From assembly GCA_002426755.1 (NCBI GenBank), contig DINI01000028.1, positions 173,433 to 237,432 of the forward strand: a stretch of 64,000 nucleotides of DNA, given 5' to 3'. The translations under genes were made by a program, and so were the position numbers. Positions 10,715-64,000 of the stretch are shown one piece after another. Below the pieces are notes generated by a model. It was given only the letters and a program-made list of their open reading frames with translations, was not told the DNA's origin and made no database searches. This DNA is from Flavobacteriaceae bacterium UBA5544. GTDB lineage: Bacteria; Bacteroidota; Bacteroidia; Flavobacteriales; Flavobacteriaceae. The stretch's first letter is position 1. Each line of letters starts with the position of its first letter.

Positions 10715-12160
10715 TTAAGAATCTAAATCGAAGGTTTCGGTTGGATTTTTGGTGTCATGATAATCCAGCATTTGCTCTCCATCAGCGATAATTGTGCAAA
10801 CGGTTGCATCTCCTGTAACGTTTACTACGGTCCTAAACATATCCAAGATTCTATCAACAGGAAAAATAATGGCTATCCACGCAGGGTTCAGTCCGACCGA
10901 ATCGAGAACAATAATGAGCATAACCAGTCCTGCACTTGGGACGGCTGCAGAACCTATCGAAGCCAAGGTAGTGGTTAAAACCACCGTAAGTTGTTGTCCA
11001 ATGGTCAAATCTATCATGTGCATCTGTGCTAAAAAAATCACGGCAACTGCTTGGTACAAACTGGTTCCATCCATATTTACGGTTGCTCCAATAGGCAATA
11101 CAAAACTGCTCACTTTTTTATTGACTCCAAGATTTTCTTCTACACACTCCATAGTGACAGGAAGCGTCGCAGCACTACTAGAGGTTGAAAACGCCAATGT
11201 TTGAGCAGGACTCATTGCTTTGAAAAAACCTGCATAAGGTATTTTTTTGACAAATGTTTTTAGAATTGCAGGATAGGTGATAAATATCATAATCAGTAAT
11301 CCAACGAGAACAGTCAATGAATACCAGCTTAAACCTTTAAATATTTCAACAACTTTCCCAATATCATCACCAGCCATTTTGCTCACGACTCCTGCCAATA
11401 GTGCAAATACAAAAAATGGTGCAGCTTGCATGACTAAATCGACCATTTTGAGAAAGACTTCGTTGATACTGTCAACCAAATTCACAACAGGTTGAGCTTT
11501 TTCGGTCGGAATAAACAAAAGACATACACCAAAAAAGATTGCGAAAAAGATAATCTGAAGCATCAATCCATTATTGGAAAGTGAGTAGAAAAAGTTATCA
11601 GGTACAATATCGATTAAAGGTTGTAAGGGTGAGGTATTTTTCTGCTTTTCTGCTTTTTCCAGTTTATCGGCTACCGAAACTTCTTTTAAATCTGCTTTTG
11701 ACAGTTCTGTGATTTTCTGTGCCCGTTCAATGAATGCCGGATCGTGCAAATAATTAATGCCGTCTTTAATTTCATGACCTTGGGATGCAGCCCATATCTC
11801 ATAATTAATACGATTGTCAATTCGGCTTTGTTCATCAATGAGTTTGCCTGGTTTTATGGTGTTCACCAAAATTAGTCCCAAGGAAATTGCAAAAACGGTT
11901 GTCAGCAAATAAATCAACAAGGTCTTCCCTCCCATTCGCCCCAAACTTTTAGGGTCGCCAATATTTGCAACGCCACTGATAATTGAAAATAGTACCAACG
12001 GAACGGCAATGAGTTTTAATAAATTGATGAAAATAGTACCAAATGGGTCAATCCAATTAATGGTGAATTCGCTCCAGCCCATTGAACTTGACAACAGTGC
12101 CCAAATGATACCGAGCGTCATTCCAATTAGGATTTTCCAGTGTAATGCTAGTTTTTTCAT
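10715..12160 (-). CDS. Dicarboxylate/amino acid:cation symporter (GltP/DctA family)
   Basis: AFSTSSSAATLP, LPIGATVNMDGTSLYQ, DRILDMFRTVVNVTGD. Confidence 0.95.
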   Translation of the reverse strand: MKKLALHWKILIGMTLGIIWALLSSSMGWSEFTINWIDPFGTIFINLLKLIAVPLVLFSIISGVANIGDPKSLGRMGGKTLLIYLLTTVFAISLGLILVNTIKPGKLIDEQSRIDNRINYEIWAASQGHEIKDGINYLHDPAFIERAQKITELSKADLKEVSVADKLEKAEKQKNTSPLQPLIDIVPDNFFYSLSNNGLMLQIIFFAIFFGVCLLFIPTEKAQPVVNLVDSINEVFLKMVDLVMQAAPFFVFALLAGVVSKMAGDDIGKVVEIFKGLSWYSLTVLVGLLIMIFITYPAILKTFVKKIPYAGFFKAMSPAQTLAFSTSSSAATLPVTMECVEENLGVNKKVSSFVLPIGATVNMDGTSLYQAVAVIFLAQMHMIDLTIGQQLTVVLTTTLASIGSAAVPSAGLVMLIIVLDSVGLNPAWIAIIFPVDRILDMFRTVVNVTGDATVCTIIADGEQMLDYHDTKNPTETFDLDS

Positions 12161-12241
12161 AATCTATAGTGATTTTTTAGCCCTGATTGAAGCGATATCC
12201 TTTTGCTTTTTTGCAAAAGATAAAGCGGAAAGCAGGAATAG

Positions 12242-13303
12242 CTACTTATACGTTTTATTGAACAGCCAAAAATCTGCCAGGACCAACGCTGCCATAGCTT
12301 CTACAATCGGTACAGCTCTTGGCACCACACAAGGGTCATGGCGACCTTTGCCTTGCATTTCTACGATTTGACCCTGATTATCCAAGGTGTTTTGTTTTTG
12401 AATGATGGTCGCAACGGGTTTAAAGGCAACCCTGAAATAAATATCCATACCATTGCTAATGCCACCTTGAATGCCTCCGGATAGATTGGTTTTGGTGGTT
12501 CCGTCGGCGTTGAACTGGTCATTGTGTTCACTACCTTTCATTTTGGCTCCACAGAAACCACTTCCATATTCAAAACCTTTGACCGCGTTGATGGAGAGCA
12601 TTGCTTTGCCCAATTCTGCGTGAAGTTTATCAAAAACGGGTTCGCCCAGTCCGATCGGCACATTTTGAATTACACAAGTCACCGTTCCTCCTATGGTATC
12701 ACCTTCTTTTCTTATCGCTTTTATTTTTTCAATCATTTGATTCGCAATTGATTCGTCTGGGCAACGTACATCATTACTTTCAATTTTGGAGAAGTCTAAA
12801 TCTTGATAGGGTTTTTCTAAAAACAAATCTCCTACAGAAGATGTGTAGGCATAAATTTTAACATCTTTCAACACTTGTTTTGCAATCGCACCAGCCACAA
12901 CTCTACAGGCCGTTTCTCTTGCTGAACTGCGTCCACCTCCTCTATAATCTCGAATGCCATATTTTTTGTCGTAGGTATAATCAGCGTGACTTGGTCTATA
13001 GACATCTTTAATATGCGAATAGTCTTTTGATTTTTGATTGGTGTTTTTAATTGTAAAACCAATTGGGGTTCCTGTAGTTTGCCCTTCAAAAATTCCTGAT
13101 AAAAATTCGACAGTGTCAGGTTCTTTTCGTTGTGTCACAATTTCAGATTGTCCGGGTTTTCGTCGATTCAATTCGGATTGGATGGCTTCCATATCCAAAA
13201 CAATACCTGATGGACAGCCATCTAAAACACCGCCAATTGCCGGACCATGTGATTCGCCAAATGTAGTCAGTTTAAATAAAGTTCCAAAGGAGTTTCCAGC
13301 CAT
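12242..13303 (-). CDS. aroC: Chorismate synthase
   Basis: [32 protein letters not shown] signatures. Confidence 0.98.
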
Positions 13304-55841: not shown

Positions 55842-55909
55842 GACCCGTTGGGTGATGCTCGCCACATTGTGGGTGTTGTGATAGAGGACTAGGGTTGGGG
55901 TGCCGTTGA

Positions 55910-56041
55910 CCTTAAGTGCACCTTAGTACTACCTTAATAGCACCTTAAGTGCACCTTACTACTACCTTACTATGACCTTACTAGCACTTTAGGTTTCCCT
56001 TACTTTCCCTTTAGGTTACCGTTACGGAGACCTTAAGAAGC
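55910..56041. repeat. Phased tandem array: 12 units of exactly 11 bp, consensus CCTTA-N5-A/C
   Basis: ccttaagtgca ccttagtacta ccttaatagca ccttaagtgca ccttactacta ccttactatga ccttactagca ctttaggtttc ccttactttcc ctttaggttac cgttacggaga ccttaagaagc. Confidence 0.9.
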
Positions 56042-58476: not shown

Positions 58477-58659
58477 TCAGTATTGCCACCAGGCTTTGAT
58501 AAATTCATCTTCCTTTAAGGGCGTTGGCACCAGATTGAAGCCTTTGCGCTGTTCCCAAACCGCTTTTGCTTCACGAATAAACCCTTGCAGGGTCAATACT
58601 TGTACCATATAGGTACCGTTGTCGGTCGGGAGGATTTTGTCTAGGTTGTGATAAGGCAT
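58477..58659 (-). CDS. 60-aa hypothetical protein, phage-like
   Basis: LP.DNGTYMVQV...IKAWWQY resembles small phage DUF551-like peptides. Confidence 0.5.
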   Translation of the reverse strand: MPYHNLDKILPTDNGTYMVQVLTLQGFIREAKAVWEQRKGFNLVPTPLKEDEFIKAWWQY

Positions 58660-58777
58660 TGGTATTTAAGTTTAGTTTAGGTATTAAAAGTAGCTCGTAA
58701 TTGTTAGACGGATTAACTGAAATGGAAAAATTGTGTGCTTGAATCGGGCCTTAAAAATGGTTTAAAGCTATCGGTAG

Positions 58778-59068
58778 CTATGGTGCTGGTGCCAATACTT
58801 CGCGCATCAACTCTTCCGGGCTCTGTTTTTGGGTGAGGTCTCGCAGCTTGTGTTTTAGTTTGAAGAGTTCGCCGTTTTTATTGGCAAGGCTTTTGCCCTC
58901 GCAGGGCAGTTTTTCGAGGGTGTGCATGCAGGCTTCTACGTAGAAGATGTTCATGAGCAGGAAGTGGGCCTTGCTATTGAGGTGTGGTACCCCATTGGCT
59001 TTGACCAACTGGCTGTAGTAGGATGTGAATTTCATGATTTTTGTGTTTGATATTACAAAAATACTCAT
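58778..59068 (-). CDS. Small hypothetical protein (ATG 59035 likely)
   Basis: Helical ORF MKFTSYYSQLVKANGVPHLN... Confidence 0.55.
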   Translation of the reverse strand: MSIFVISNTKIMKFTSYYSQLVKANGVPHLNSKAHFLLMNIFYVEACMHTLEKLPCEGKSLANKNGELFKLKHKLRDLTQKQSPEELMREVLAPAP

Positions 59069-59772: not shown

Positions 59773-59827
59773 CTGGAATTTTTGAGAGCAGTTTAATCAA
59801 AAAGACTTGTGCCATTGTTGCCAGTAG

Positions 59828-60247
59828 TTATTTATTCACTTTTCTTCCATAAACCGATATTTTAATCGGAAAAATTTGAAGCTCAATTCCTTCTCCAAGG
59901 CTAAATGAAAATGTTTTAGTTTTCTTTAGTATGCCTTTTGAAGTATATGAATTTCCAGTCAAATTATTATACGCTTGTACACCATTGGAATGAAAGGCGT
60001 TACCAGTCAAGTTGTTGTAAGCTTGAACTCCGTTGGAATGAAATGCACTTCCTGTCAGATTGTTATAAGCCTGAACCCCATTAGAATGAAAGGCACTACC
60101 AGTCAAATTGTTATAGGCTTGGACCCCATTAGAATGGAAAGCACCACCAGTTAAATTGTTGTAAGCTTGAACTCCGTTTGGATGAAAAGCACTACCAGTT
60201 AAATCATTCCATTTATATACTCCATTTGGGTGTTTTGAACTAGCCAT
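59828..60247 (-). CDS. 139-aa protein with 16-aa tandem repeats (NNLTGSAFHSNGVQAY x5 plus 2 partial)
   Basis: 48-bp period; repeats differ mostly at synonymous positions. Confidence 0.85.
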   Translation of the reverse strand: MASSKHPNGVYKWNDLTGSAFHPNGVQAYNNLTGGAFHSNGVQAYNNLTGSAFHSNGVQAYNNLTGSAFHSNGVQAYNNLTGNAFHSNGVQAYNNLTGNSYTSKGILKKTKTFSFSLGEGIELQIFPIKISVYGRKVNK

Positions 60248-60262
60248 ATTCTATAATTGAAT

Positions 60263-60787
60263 TTAATTATTATGTAAAAACCATTCATAAAGTAATGGTT
60301 TCATTGATTTTTCTTCTTTAGTTTCTTGTTCGTAATTTAAGACAAAATCTCTCGGAATTTCAATTCCATAATATGTATGTGGAAAACTATCGTTTTCCTG
60401 GTTAAAAGGGTCTTCAGCATCCTCAATTCTAGCTAGGTCAATTATGTTTCCATCTACAGTATTAAAACTATGTGTAATAATCGGATAAGGGAATGTATTG
60501 CGAGCTACAAAACCTGTATAGTATTTAAAATTACAATCTGCAATTGTAGAAGCTTTTGCCGAATAGTGACATTGATAATGAATATGTTCATATCCAAGGT
60601 CATTAATTCCATTTAACATTTCATTACTTGGAACTACTTCATTGTATGATTCTATTGTATTAATTTCTTGTAAATTATCTCTTATCCATTGATTAAAAAT
60701 ATCCTTTTCAAGTCCATAGATTTCATTGTAAAAGATTCCGCCTTCGTCAAGGCATAATTCGTAAAAATCTACTTCGTTCAAATTCAT
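60263..60787 (-). CDS. 174-aa hypothetical protein with a putative Cys-His-Asp triad (transglutaminase/papain-like)
   Basis: QCHYSA (C73), YYTGF, THSFN (H106), GNIID (D117). Confidence 0.55.
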   Translation of the reverse strand: MNLNEVDFYELCLDEGGIFYNEIYGLEKDIFNQWIRDNLQEINTIESYNEVVPSNEMLNGINDLGYEHIHYQCHYSAKASTIADCNFKYYTGFVARNTFPYPIITHSFNTVDGNIIDLARIEDAEDPFNQENDSFPHTYYGIEIPRDFVLNYEQETKEEKSMKPLLYEWFLHNN

Positions 60788-60829
60788 TTATTTTCGGTTT
60801 TTTGACAGGTTATGCTGTTTTTTTTTAAT

Positions 60830-60969
60830 TACTGGCAACGTTTTGTGTATGGTTAGTTGCGTGGTTAAGCAACTAATTTAGTATACAAAAACTTGCCAGA
60901 GAAAATTCCGAAGGAATTTTCCAGATAAGCACTTGCCAAAGCAATTAATTATACACGGTGTTAGCAACA
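60830..60969 (-). other. attC-like imperfect palindrome (Flavo-1-type element)
   Basis: Outer arms AAC..GTGTAT-GGTTAGTTGC / GCAATTAATT-ATACAC..GTT; inner hairpin GAAAATTCC/GGAATTTTC; lies between a stop codon and the next start. Confidence 0.75.
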
Positions 60970-61822
60970 GTACTTATTTGATTTTTGAATTAATGTCATT
61001 CAATTTTTTTGCGAATTCAAGTTTTCTTAATTCTTTATTTCGTTTGTCTACAGCTTCATCTAATGAGAAGAAGATAATAGCTTTTACAATCGGTAAATAT
61101 TCTTGACATTCATTTTCTTCGAGCTCGTGCACTCCTTTACTTAAGGTGGAATATATATGAGAATTATCATTAAAATAATCAGGTAAAAATTCTTTTACAT
61201 AATTCAATTTATCTTCCATTCTCAATTTCCTGAATTCTTCTTCAGAAATTTTTTCAGCTATGTCTGATTCGTTAAAGTTCTTTAATATTATTCCTTCGAA
61301 TATCCTTCTGTAATACAAAAATGAAGCAATTGCGTAGCCATATGATTCTAACTGGGAAGCCTTTGCCAACTCTTTTAATTGAATATTATCAAGTACTTTC
61401 TTGTATTTATTAAAGTTTTCAATTACAGTATCGTATTTTGAAGGATACTCCGAAATTTTGACGAGTTGACTATCATCTAAATAGAAACCAAAAAGTATTT
61501 GGTGCTTTGGATTTGCACTACATCGAAAAGTTTTAAAAAGACTTGGTTTATTTCTGATTGCCTGTTGTCCATAATGAGAATTTCTAACACTTGATGTATC
61601 ATATATTCCGCTATCAGGCGCAAAAATTCTTTTCGCTTCACATTCTGTGCAGTAATGCTCAATTCTATCTTTAAAGCTCGATATTAGATAATTGAGGTCG
61701 GTTTCCGACCAAATTCCATTTTCATCTTCAACTTCTACTTTATTGTTCCATTTCGTATAAAGTGGTGAATCAACAATTATTTGCTTTATATCCATAAATT
61801 TGAGTTTGTATTGTTGCTAACA
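60959..61822 (-). mobile_element. Integron-like gene cassette 1 (one gene)
   Basis: Perfect 11-bp inverted pair TGTTAGCAACA (60959-60969) / TGTTGCTAACA (61812-61822) bracketing the 273-aa gene. Confidence 0.7.
60974..61795 (-). CDS. 273-aa hypothetical protein, Zn-ribbon plus HEPN-like domain
   Basis: CTEC...C..H; helical C-half with YRRIFE and LSKGVHEL. Confidence 0.55.
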   Translation of the reverse strand: MDIKQIIVDSPLYTKWNNKVEVEDENGIWSETDLNYLISSFKDRIEHYCTECEAKRIFAPDSGIYDTSSVRNSHYGQQAIRNKPSLFKTFRCSANPKHQILFGFYLDDSQLVKISEYPSKYDTVIENFNKYKKVLDNIQLKELAKASQLESYGYAIASFLYYRRIFEGIILKNFNESDIAEKISEEEFRKLRMEDKLNYVKEFLPDYFNDNSHIYSTLSKGVHELEENECQEYLPIVKAIIFFSLDEAVDKRNKELRKLEFAKKLNDINSKIK

Positions 61823-61957
61823 TCTGGATAAACGCACAGCTGTGTTTATTTCGATTATAAATTTTTAAATTGATATGTTTATTCGGCATAATCTTTAGAT
61901 AAACAAACCTTTTATTACATAGTATAGCAATTACGCTAAAATAAAGGAGATATCAAA

Positions 61958-61973
61958 TACGTAGTTCTACGTA
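61958..61973. promoter_or_regulatory. Perfect palindrome TACGTAG-tt-CTACGTA (operator-like)
   Basis: Directly visible, in the spacer upstream of the first cassette. Confidence 0.5.
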
Positions 61974-61994
61974 ATTGTTAATTAAAATTATTTA

Positions 61995-64000
61995 CTAGGA
62001 ATTTTTTACAATATCAATCTCCTCTTCCGTCAACCCATATAACTCATACACCATTGCGTCAATCTCTTTATCGGTTTGGTCTATTTGGGATTTGAGGGCT
62101 AGGGCTTTTTGTTGTTCGGTGGTGAAGTAATCTTCCCACTCTGCTTCTTCGGATAGAGAGAGTTTTATTTTCTTTTTTGCTAGTTCTTTGATGAACTCGG
62201 CATAGCTCAACTCATACCAACTTTCTAACTTTTTAGGTAACTTATCCAAGCCTTTAAATTTGCGTTGGAGGGTGCGTTGGAATTTGTTGTTTGTATTGAT
62301 AAATGAACTATATGATGATTGAATATCATCAACATGTAACTCTAATAATTTAATATTGTTAATTTCCTCAATGTTTTTAGAAATTGGAACAGTTAAGACT
62401 TTATCTCTTCTAAAATCGAAGTACCCTCCTTGCAATGAAGTGCAAATATTTTTCAGATAAAAGAATATAAGTTTTGAATTTAAAATTGCAATCAACGCTT
62501 TTGAATCAGAAGCAATAAAATAATTATTATTTGTTAATAAAAGTGAGCCCTCATTGTCCAAATAGAAACCACATTCATTTGAAATACTTCTCCATATTAT
62601 TTTAGGTTTTTGAATTTTGTCATAATAATCACAAGGTCTTAAATTCCACCAATTCTTTCCTTTATCACCTCTCTTAATTAAGTCCTTTTCAAAATTTGAT
62701 AACCAACTAAAAATACTAGGATATTTACTTTTTACATTAATGTCGTATTCAGTTAATATTATATATTTTCCACTATTTTCGTGTCTATATCTATATATGT
62801 CTTTTCCTGTTGCAACACTTTTAATTAATTCTTTTGATTTTATATCCTCATTCTCTAATATATCTTTCACACTATCATCTATAATGAAAGCATCATTTTT
62901 GCCAGTTTTAATTCCTAGAAAAACTTTCTTATTTACGTAGTCATTTAAGGACACTGACTTATGAAATAATTTTTTAAAAACCTTCTCACTGTTTTTATCT
63001 ATAAAATTCCATACATCGTTATTTAATGAGCTTTTTAAAACTTCATAAGCCTTTAAATTCAATAATCCGATAGGGTCTATTGTGAAATCTCTTTTATTAA
63101 TTTCCGAATAAATGAAATATTCTTTATTAGTCGATTTGTTTTTATTTAATACATAAATTATTGGATAAGTTGTGGCATCATCAAAAACAGGGTAATCATC
63201 AAAATCAAAAAGTAGTTCTAAATTGGTTTTTTCTTTTATGACTTTTCTAATTTGTCTGCCATAGGAAGCTTTTAAAAACTTATTTGGAAGAATAAATGAA
63301 AACGAACCTTTTTCATTCATTAAGTTAATACCTTTTTCAATAAAGTATGTATATAAATCGGCTACACTATTATAGCATTCATAGTTCTTTTCTAAATATG
63401 GCTTAATCTCCTTAAATAATTCCTGCCTAACATAAGGCGGATTCCCAATCACCACATCAAAACCCCGTTTAGTTTCAGCAGATTGCTTCGTGCCTCGCAA
63501 TGACGTTGTGATGGTGTTGGGTGATGGATTGAAGATTTGAGAGAACTCTTTCTCCCAATTAAATGCCTTATCGCCAGCGACCTTTTTATCATCAATCAAA
63601 CTATTGCCACATTTTATGTTGCTGTTTAAATCGTTGAGCTTACGTCGGGGCTGTGCGGTGCGTAACCAAAGGGAGAGTTTTGCAATCTCTACCGATTCTT
63701 CATTGAGGTCCACCCCATAGATATTGTTTTCTAAAATGGTGTTCTCGATATCACTCAATACCAAGCCACCACCAAGGACATTGGCTTTGAGTTCGTCGAT
63801 ATAACGATGTTCCTTAATCAGGAAATCCAAGGCTTGGTTTAGAAATGCGCCAGAGCCACAGGCAGGGTCGCAGATGGTGAGTTGCAATAGCCAATTGCGA
63901 TAGGTGTCCAGCAGGTCTACCAATTCCTGTAGTTTCTTTTTTGGTCGGTTGGCACGGCTTTTAAAGTATTCCTCTTCCTGAAAACCGAGTTCGACTTTCT
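61995..64000 (-). CDS. Type IIG (Eco57I/TaqI-like) restriction-modification enzyme, 5'-partial; frame stays open to the window end
   Basis: DPACGSGAF motif I, GVDLNEESVEIAKLSLW, GFDVVIGNPPY motif IV, TaqI-C-like KIIWRSIS. Confidence 0.9.
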   Translation of the reverse strand, partial: KVELGFQEEEYFKSRANRPKKKLQELVDLLDTYRNWLLQLTICDPACGSGAFLNQALDFLIKEHRYIDELKANVLGGGLVLSDIENTILENNIYGVDLNEESVEIAKLSLWLRTAQPRRKLNDLNSNIKCGNSLIDDKKVAGDKAFNWEKEFSQIFNPSPNTITTSLRGTKQSAETKRGFDVVIGNPPYVRQELFKEIKPYLEKNYECYNSVADLYTYFIEKGINLMNEKGSFSFILPNKFLKASYGRQIRKVIKEKTNLELLFDFDDYPVFDDATTYPIIYVLNKNKSTNKEYFIYSEINKRDFTIDPIGLLNLKAYEVLKSSLNNDVWNFIDKNSEKVFKKLFHKSVSLNDYVNKKVFLGIKTGKNDAFIIDDSVKDILENEDIKSKELIKSVATGKDIYRYRHENSGKYIILTEYDINVKSKYPSIFSWLSNFEKDLIKRGDKGKNWWNLRPCDYYDKIQKPKIIWRSISNECGFYLDNEGSLLLTNNNYFIASDSKALIAILNSKLIFFYLKNICTSLQGGYFDFRRDKVLTVPISKNIEEINNIKLLELHVDDIQSSYSSFINTNNKFQRTLQRKFKGLDKLPKKLESWYELSYAEFIKELAKKKIKLSLSEEAEWEDYFTTEQQKALALKSQIDQTDKEIDAMVYELYGLTEEEIDIVKNS
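63480..63504. repeat. REP-like element AGATTGCTTCGTGCCTCGCAATGAC inside the RM coding frame
   Basis: Translates as SLRGTKQS in an extra loop before GFDVVIGNPPY; resembles the dispersed GTCATTGCGAG..GAAGCAATCT repeat. Confidence 0.7.

Follow-up and report, generated by a model that had tools for sequence, protein, structure and literature searches.

The described systems closest to the locus reported here are integrons, with their attC sites (59-base elements), and the rAID-1 arrays of gut Bacteroidales (Ross et al. 2019; 10.1101/471110; PMC12247911), which are the closest published system in the same phylum. According to PMC4889954, attC sites in arrays are hybrids of two cassettes, and an IntI-specific insertion is credited to Messier and Roy 2001. 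That insertion is described as "not fully conserved" in a subgroup of integron-like recombinases (Smyshlyaev et al.; PMC8138268). Membership of rAID-1 is defined as occurrence in Bacteroidales with at least 44% identity to one B. fragilis recombinase, BF9343_RS08045, whose close homologues its authors considered restricted to Bacteroidales (Ross et al. 2019). Full-text searches on integron or attC together with Flavobacteria or Bacteroidota, with subscription journals outside their scope, returned no published description for Flavobacteriaceae. Surveys with IntegronFinder 2.0 reported from Bacteroidetes only In0 elements, plus one complete integron in Salinibacter (PMC9024848). Integrons are held to be essentially absent from Bacteroidota, yet the genome described here contains the full cassette grammar, with about 70 sites, and that grammar extends across a bacterial family.

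The window, meaning the whole stretch of 64,000 nucleotides analysed from Flavobacteriaceae bacterium UBA5544, contains at 60830-60969 a 140-nt stretch that reads TACTGGC, then AAC...GTT, then AGCAACA. The 126 nt from AAC to GTT (60837-60962) form a predicted attC-like recombination site, with the plus strand as the predicted folding ('bottom') strand, on the evidence of family copies, L-stem covariation and G.T asymmetry. The R boxes are AAC at 60837-60839 and GTT at 60960-60962, and between the triplets and the stem lie asymmetric, unpaired spacers, GTTTT (60840-60844) versus GGT (60957-60959). The L stem is formed by GTGTATGGTTAGTTGC (60845-60860) and GCAATTAATTATACAC (60941-60956), 16 bp of which three are G.T. 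Within the variable terminal region (60861-60940) sits a small inner hairpin, GAAAATTCC-GAA-GGAATTTTC (60901-60921, plus strand; arms 60901-60909 and 60913-60921), which has an equivalent in most family members, GGAAAATCC...GGATTTTCC; the word ACTTGCCA occurs twice, at 60891-60898 and 60931-60938. Outside the triplets, the two flanks are complementary at only 2/7 positions. A sequence-only reading had described a 140-bp imperfect hairpin with an inner stem and two direct repeats, paired inside AAC/GTT and mismatched beyond; these features are all present in the sequence, and the 16 bp of pairing inside and 2/7 outside bear out the contrast that it drew. We judge, with a probability of roughly 0.8, that 60837-60962 is a cassette recombination site, an attC analogue, placed where two promoterless cassettes of a small orphan array meet, and recombined as a folded strand by a recombinase related to Xer and IntI.

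Predicted folding of the site exceeds that of shuffled sequence on both strands (z = -4.6 on the plus strand and -5.5 on the minus strand; 0 of 200 shuffles as good). Taken by itself, the window copy is predicted to be most stable as a local hairpin (60832-60899) plus the small inner one, and less so as the long-range hairpin of 140 nt: under DNA parameters the minimum free energy is -28.3 kcal/mol (local hairpin) versus -16.9 kcal/mol for the attC-like fold of the plus strand as it stands, the minus strand giving -13.3 kcal/mol. When the outer 7 nt were swapped for a cassette's own partner, the attC-like fold reached -25.5 and -24.7 kcal/mol, close to the minimum of -28.3. Across the family the picture differs from that of the single copy. 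RNAalifold, run on 40 copies from the same genome, predicted the long-range stem as the sole structure, while the local hairpin was rejected as a conserved fold, being paired at 58% versus 54% in shuffled controls and specific to a subfamily of four members that also carry ACTTGCCA words. The conserved, covarying fold of the family is the long-range stem, not the local hairpin. The local hairpin of the window copy makes use of an internal pseudo right arm (60870-60899, ending CTTGCCAG), which pairs with the left arm and the cassette-specific flank CTGGCAA. A sister copy, C11:44637 (contigs of this genome are given as C and a number), has GTT-GCCAGTA as its real 3' flank, which hints at a history shared between the subfamily and a cassette core of the GCCAGTA type.

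The covariation alignment comprises 40 copies chosen for an AAC start and a GTT end; coming from one genome, they are all related, and the shuffle control overstates the signal, a slid control being fairer. Taking the R and L stems together, 96.6% of cells were paired versus 83.3% in shuffled alignments, and at most 47% when one partner was slid by 1-3 columns; in the L stem alone (16 pairs) the figure was 95.9%. Cells changed on both sides numbered 97 versus 32 after shuffling, the covariation score was 0.36 versus 0.12 (reached by 0 of 500 shuffles), and compensatory changes were found in 8 of the 16 stem pairs. The family spacer is unpaired, 5-7 nt on one side versus 3 nt on the other. A bulged T is present in some copies only, and the alignment does not establish VCR-like, defined extrahelical bases. 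None of the 40 aligned copies departs from AAC and GTT, but they were selected for these ends, and other copies have variants such as TAC, AGC and GGT.

Could the arms instead be protein-binding half-sites of a duplex, recombined in the manner of Xer/dif or Cre/lox within the same cassette system? The alignment makes this unlikely. Half-sites need no compensatory changes between arms that lie 80 nt apart, and a long, variable, hairpin-forming region separates those arms. Nor would duplex recombination yield the bias seen among the stem cells, which comprise 516 Watson-Crick, 97 G.T and 3 A.C pairs, with two positions that are nearly always G.T (37/40 and 39/40) and a third at which G.T is frequent. 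Since each G.T of one strand appears as A.C in its complement, the plus strand of the site model is the better folder; its energy advantage in the attC-like fold is modest at 3.6 kcal/mol, a point in favour of the duplex alternative. Covariation and the 97:3 excess of G.T over A.C lend indirect support to folding as a single strand, as the attC-like reading would have it, and because cassette ORFs are antisense to the site model, the favoured folding strand would correspond to the integron 'bottom' strand.

BLAST detected about 40 copies of the element in its own 3.7-Mb genome, and iterated nhmmer detected 71. These are arranged mostly as runs in a common orientation, at intervals of 0.55-1.4 kb, including arrays of at least 17 sites on C1/C6, 10 sites on C11 and two runs on C10, with others on C34, C32, C20, C31, C30, C12 and C14. 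Many copies sit at the ends of contigs, which would follow if assembly tends to fail at such repeats. The copy in the window stands by itself, its closest family member being 90 kb off. Conservation in the family alignment begins exactly at AAC and stops exactly at GTT, leaving the 7 nt outside each triplet free to vary.

These variable flanks are not independent of one another. When the 7 nt following the GTT of one site were compared with the 7 nt preceding the AAC of the next, in 44 adjacent site pairs, the two ends of the same cassette were perfectly reverse-complementary (7/7) in 18 pairs and matched at 6/7 or better in 25. By comparison, the two flanks of the same site were perfectly complementary in 1/51 cases, with 1/51 at 6/7 or better, and an all-against-all comparison of flanks gave 40 perfect pairs among 3658 (1.1%) and 2.9% at 6/7 or better. 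Several of the failures fall in long intervals, which probably conceal a missed site, or are one-base offsets. Because complementarity breaks within a site and returns between a cassette's own ends, each array site reads as a hybrid of two cassettes. Precisely this pattern, broken outside AAC/GTT and restored by pairing a cassette's own ends, had been put forward as the check on the sequence-only reading, and it was borne out by the 18/44 perfect pairs and by both cassettes of the window, which match at 7/7.

The intervals between sites behave as compact gene cassettes. Of 43 cassettes, 39 have their longest ORF running antisense to the site model, and the ORF of a single-ORF cassette typically begins 9-24 nt past a site, its stop coming 8-20 nt short of the following one. 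Cassettes have a GC content of 31-33%, below both the genome (36.8%) and the recombinase genes (41-44.5%). Products of cassettes elsewhere in the genome include a DUF1883-TIR protein, an HD_3 phosphohydrolase, a glyoxalase/bleomycin-resistance-type protein, and SnoaL-like, DUF4304 and DUF7674 proteins; one single cassette of 3.2 kb (C31:69887-73076) encodes a 1051-aa protein with a reverse-transcriptase domain. The TIR and reverse-transcriptase cassettes carry defence-type genes, and many further products resemble, by eye, small exported proteins. Separately, long 'cassettes' of the C34 array contain, at C34:117600-123200, a repeat of up to 430 bp in triplicate (90-92% identity between copies), pointing to a module that was duplicated or to insertion of an element into the array.

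High copy number, a palindromic and intergenic character and a tendency to break assemblies are also what a selfish dispersed repeat of the REP/BIME or MITE type would show, one that a transposase disperses without any connection to cassette exchange. We consider such an origin highly improbable here. The copies share an orientation, lie about a gene's length apart and have ORFs packed into the intervals; their flanks are cassette-specific inverted cores instead of target-site duplications, and the elements are physically tied to one recombinase family. The genome was also found to contain no Y1/HUH (RAYT, IS200/IS605) transposase and no serine recombinase, which rules out either type of enzyme as the agent.

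A structured noncoding RNA, whether Flavo-1-like or novel, was weighed as well, as was an RNA element acting in cis, for instance as a terminator or to stabilise mRNA. The site shares with the Flavo-1 RNA motif its occurrence in Flavobacteria, an intergenic position and an imperfect hairpin, but the sequence and structure of that motif are unrelated to those of the attC-like site. Using Rfam Flavo-1 (RF01705; gathering score 42 bits), cmscan gave no match at the element (60600-61200) even at E<=10, which rules out the Flavo-1 label of the sequence-only reading; the two elements are unrelated. What stood of that reading, through the own-end test, is the hybrid recombination site or attC analogue with exchange at the triplet. 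A permissive scan of 60600-61200 against Rfam produced only microRNA-type matches at chance level. The sole Rfam match over the gathering threshold in the whole window is a Flavo-1 copy at 12175-12243 (plus strand, 68.5 bits), 48 kb from the element, within the 80-nt gap between the minus-strand genes 10715-12160 and 12242-13303. Seven Flavo-1 copies in the genome exceed the cut-off; all are single and dispersed, and none lies at a copy of the attC-like element.

We hold an RNA of either kind to be just as improbable as a selfish repeat; no Rfam family matches, and the true Flavo-1 copies lie elsewhere. Strong predicted folding of both strands and a place between co-directional genes would suit an RNA, and G.U pairs are allowed in RNA too; but the mRNA of the flanking genes carries the A.C version, the favoured strand being antisense to them, and the coding strand has no T-run after the hairpin. 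An RNA would also leave unexplained why a flank covaries with the far end of its cassette and why the elements are linked to a recombinase.

Read along the minus strand, the window locus consists of an Eco57I-type restriction-modification gene (61995-63998), a 53-bp conserved block (61924-61976, plus strand), a type-2 site, cassette 1, the site at 60837-60962, cassette 2, a decayed site and a DUF1643 gene. Cassette 1 (60963-61818, minus strand) is occupied by a single ORF of 273 aa (60974-61795, minus strand), whose stop codon lies 12 nt from the site. Cassette 2 (59820-60836, minus strand) has ORFs of 174 aa (60263-60787) and 139 aa (59828-60247), the latter for a 16-residue-repeat protein. 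None of the three cassette ORFs matched a Pfam family over its cut-off. The flank TACTGGC (60830-60836, plus strand) is the core of cassette 2 and the exact reverse complement of GCCAGTA at 59820-59826, while AGCAACA (60963-60969, plus strand) is the core of cassette 1 and the exact reverse complement of TGTTGCT at 61812-61818. Both predicted partners are present in the window in the expected context, GTT-GCCAGTA at 59817 and TGTTGCT-AAC at 61812-61821. Exact 10-nt pairs of this kind arise by chance 9-14 times per window, and for a specified partner on the correct side within 4 kb we estimate a probability of the order of 0.004 each. The decayed remnant at the distal end of cassette 2 (59773-59819, plus strand) ends in ...GCCATTGTT, which resembles GCC-type right arms weakly, as a resemblance only, and it gave no nhmmer match to the site family.

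Cassette 1 is bounded on its proximal side by the type-2 site (61819-61858, plus strand), which consists of AAC, ATCT and a short bulged hairpin, GGATAAACGCACAG/CTGTGTTTATTTC, with TAT replacing GTT. The genome has four such sites, the three beyond the window being located on C31 (within 68408-68543, a stretch that also takes in a copy of the 53-bp block), at C20:177111 and at C20:178106. All share AAC followed by 4 nt and a bulged hairpin of 13-14 bp, TAT or TAC instead of GTT, and an AAC box on one side only. The three non-window copies abut cassettes with matching far ends (7/7, 7/7 and 6/7). Type-2 sites bound the recombinase-proximal side of orphan arrays, and in two loci the 53-bp block lies alongside; the window block is 87% identical to C31:68408-68460, at the same position relative to another array. 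The type-2 site was considered as an attI-like motif and set aside, its sequence differing from that of the ATATAAC-type entry site described below.

Some further features of this neighbourhood stand apart from the array. Tandem repeats of 48 bp (75-78% identity, 59934-60204) lie in the 139-aa ORF of cassette 2 and account for its 16-residue repeats. A gene pair of 96 aa and 60 aa (58477-59068, minus strand) is the sole part of the neighbourhood found in relatives, three of which (G007, G009 and G011) carry it at 61-77% amino-acid identity, always in another context, which in G011 includes an adjacent member of the attC-like family; the pair could represent a former cassette or else a module of toxin-antitoxin type. 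At 55909-55985 there is an 11-bp phased tandem array with an ACCTTA core.

No recombinase gene adjoins the site at 60837-60962, the nearest being on other contigs, so any action on it would have to be in trans, and no recombinase pseudogene was found beside the window array. The window locus may be a fossil, given how small the array is and that it ends distally in a decayed site and proximally in one of the puzzling type-2 kind. The window cassette genes were conserved in 0 of 30 relatives, and the genes and flanks were not syntenic, so that no empty-site comparison could be made.

Eight tyrosine recombinases are encoded in the genome, and two stand out, at C4:53779-55065 and C26:36989-38422. 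They scored 192 bits (C4) and 213 bits (C26) with the IntI model TIGR02249, for which the cut-off is 265 bits; no IntI over that cut-off occurs in the genome, which by these best scores lacks a complete integron in the sense of an IntI with its additional domain. With NF040815 ('site-specific tyrosine recombinase/integron integrase'; cut-off 220 bits) the scores were 223 (C4) and 211 bits (C26). Both proteins combine a SAM-like core-binding domain with a catalytic domain, preceded by an N-terminal region with no Pfam match, of about 130 residues in C4 and about 185 in C26. An AlphaFold model places a small alpha/beta unit in this region, and a fold search with the recombinase model returned XerA and IntI-type folds only, which is uninformative on the N-terminal domain. 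Their closest solved relatives are the archaeal XerA structures (4a8e, 5hxy), followed by VchIntIA (2a3v). The alignment to VchIntIA skips residues 182-243, where the query has 19 residues; judged by this alignment, those residues are the IntI-specific insertion, and the C4 and C26 recombinases lack it. In VchIntIA the insertion contacts extrahelical bases. Recognition of a hairpin accordingly cannot be assumed by homology, and the closeness to XerA and the missing insertion that reads extrahelical bases both speak for the duplex alternative discussed above.

The two recombinase genes lie near contig ends, and each is followed by GATATAAC-NA-GTT and a variable word. The C4 gene is directly followed by two co-directional cassettes with matched ends, GTT-GCCCAC...GTGGGC-AAC and GTT-GCCACCA...TGGTGGC-AAC, and GC content is 31% downstream versus 44.5% in the recombinase gene. 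At the C26 gene, the contig end is reached after the attI-like motif. Near the start of another contig, C21:536-684 matches the last 50 residues of the C4 recombinase with 60-82% identity and a frameshift; it is a third copy of the recombinase, possibly a dead one.

Linkage of site and recombinase was found to extend beyond this genome. Two scans yielded 136 homologous recombinase loci, mostly from Flavobacteriaceae (Winogradskyella, Lutibacter, Confluentibacter, Tamlana, Maribacter, Polaribacter and others), and more distant homologues occur across Bacteroidota and beyond, those of Bacteroidales being 33-42% identical to the C4 protein. The site HMM built from this genome gave 96 matches in 35 of the 136 loci, of which 90 were downstream and co-oriented and 6 upstream and divergent. 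ATATAAC-NN-GTT with a variable 7-mer was present in about 30 loci, 20-40 nt past the stop codon or farther in a few, a placement that would suit an attI-like entry site. A generic detector of GTT+7 and 7+AAC chains, applied upstream and downstream of the 136 recombinase genes (1.6 versus 0.96 links/kb), proved too noisy in AT-rich DNA to count as evidence. Among 30 relatives, whose kinship makes these bare counts and not independent observations, the site was present in 10/11 of the same genus, 16/18 of the same family and 0/12 from other families of the order; for the recombinase the corresponding counts were 8/11, 14/18 and 0/12. One 99%-complete relative has sites and, at the threshold used, no recombinase, so orphan arrays do exist. 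A second recombinase clade in Flavobacteriaceae (L094, L103, L109, L123, L126 and L128; 35-39% identical to C4) also neighbours sites of the family, which in two loci are upstream and divergent, as in classical integrons.

Together, these observations are consistent with the following scheme. The antisense strand (plus in the window) would fold in vivo as single-stranded DNA into an AAC/GTT box, an asymmetric spacer, a 16-bp stem and a terminal region that varies and contains small hairpins. The recombinase of C4 or C26 would then bind the folded site, presumably with some role for its N-terminal domain, and catalyse strand exchange, the cut falling in or beside one of the AAC/GTT triplets. 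Cassettes would be excised as circles and inserted beside the recombinase gene at ATATAAC NN GTT, or at sites of the family. Exchange at the triplet, as proposed, would make each array site a hybrid, with the 5' outer 7 nt from one cassette and the 3' outer 7 nt from its neighbour, and a perfect 10-bp outer stem would be restored only by joining a cassette's own ends. No near-identical cassette pairs exist within the genome, so the side of the crossover could not be located from duplicates. Cassettes in a second context were represented in the relatives' loci by one truncated match only, and neither an excised circle, an empty site nor a cassette duplicated in a second context was found in the genome, the 30 relatives and the recombinase loci; mobility is for this reason inferred from the grammar and the variability of the arrays only.

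On a broader view, a separate lineage of integron-type capture may exist in Flavobacteriaceae and probably across much of Bacteroidota, the gut rAID-1 being one branch of it, in which a XerA-like recombinase without the IntI insertion recombines folded single-stranded hairpins; we put the odds of this at about even. If it holds, the defining IntI domain is not needed for cassette capture, and surveys with IntI and attC models greatly underestimate how common integron-like systems are. The domain by which integron integrases are defined is missing from the recombinase, despite chimeric hairpin sites, complementary cassette ends, packed promoterless ORFs and a conserved entry site. Should the system be active at the present day, it would show that cassette capture at hairpin sites can do without the IntI insertion, would account mechanistically for the so far puzzling "integron-like" repeats in rAID-1 arrays, and would mean that marine bacteria have a large stock of mobile accessory genes, among them TIR and reverse-transcriptase genes of the defence type. 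One recombinase and one 126-nt site form a directly testable pair.

Set against known systems, the site most resembles integron attC sites. It shares with them an imperfect AAC...GTT inverted repeat, an unpaired spacer, an inner stem conserved in structure and a variable terminal region, and likewise a position directly 3' of promoterless ORFs in co-oriented arrays of chimeric sites, with the own ends of a cassette complementary. The favoured folding strand, judged from the G.T bias of the stem and from energy, is antisense to the ORFs in both cases, and cassette contents are similarly variable, AT-rich and inclusive of defence-type genes (TIR, reverse transcriptase), with orphan arrays away from the recombinase. 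The nearest kind of integron is found in the repeats of about 123-126 bp of sedentary chromosomal integrons and in the integrase-less clusters termed CALIN or SALIN (Cury et al. 2016, PMC4889954; Neron et al. 2022, PMC9024848). Unlike in attC, outer pairing is cassette-specific and reaches 7 nt beyond the triplet, giving a 10-bp box instead of RYYYAAC/GTTRRRY, and the entry site is ATATAAC-NN-GTT. Unlike IntI, the recombinase is without the IntI-specific insertion, falls below the cut-off of the IntI model and has an extra N-terminal region of about 100-190 aa; its gene is usually co-directional with the cassettes, not divergent from them.

In sequence and fold, the catalytic and core-binding domains are closest to XerA. 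Xer acts on a single short duplex dif site in chromosome resolution, whereas here about 70 long, structured sites bound gene cassettes. The likeness to rAID-1 lies in a 5' tyrosine recombinase, there of the XerD family, followed by an array of short co-directional genes with repetitive intergenic sequences 'reminiscent of integrons', and in an array GC content below that of the recombinase gene. This comparison draws on published descriptions of the rAID-1 recombinase. The rAID-1 papers give motifs and not folded sites, own-end complementarity or a crossover, and most rAID-1 cargo consists of T6SS immunity genes, in contrast to the mixed cassette contents here. Even so, the arrangement by which rAID-1 loci are recognised, at least two co-directional low-GC genes downstream of the recombinase with repetitive intergenic sequences, is found at the C4 locus.
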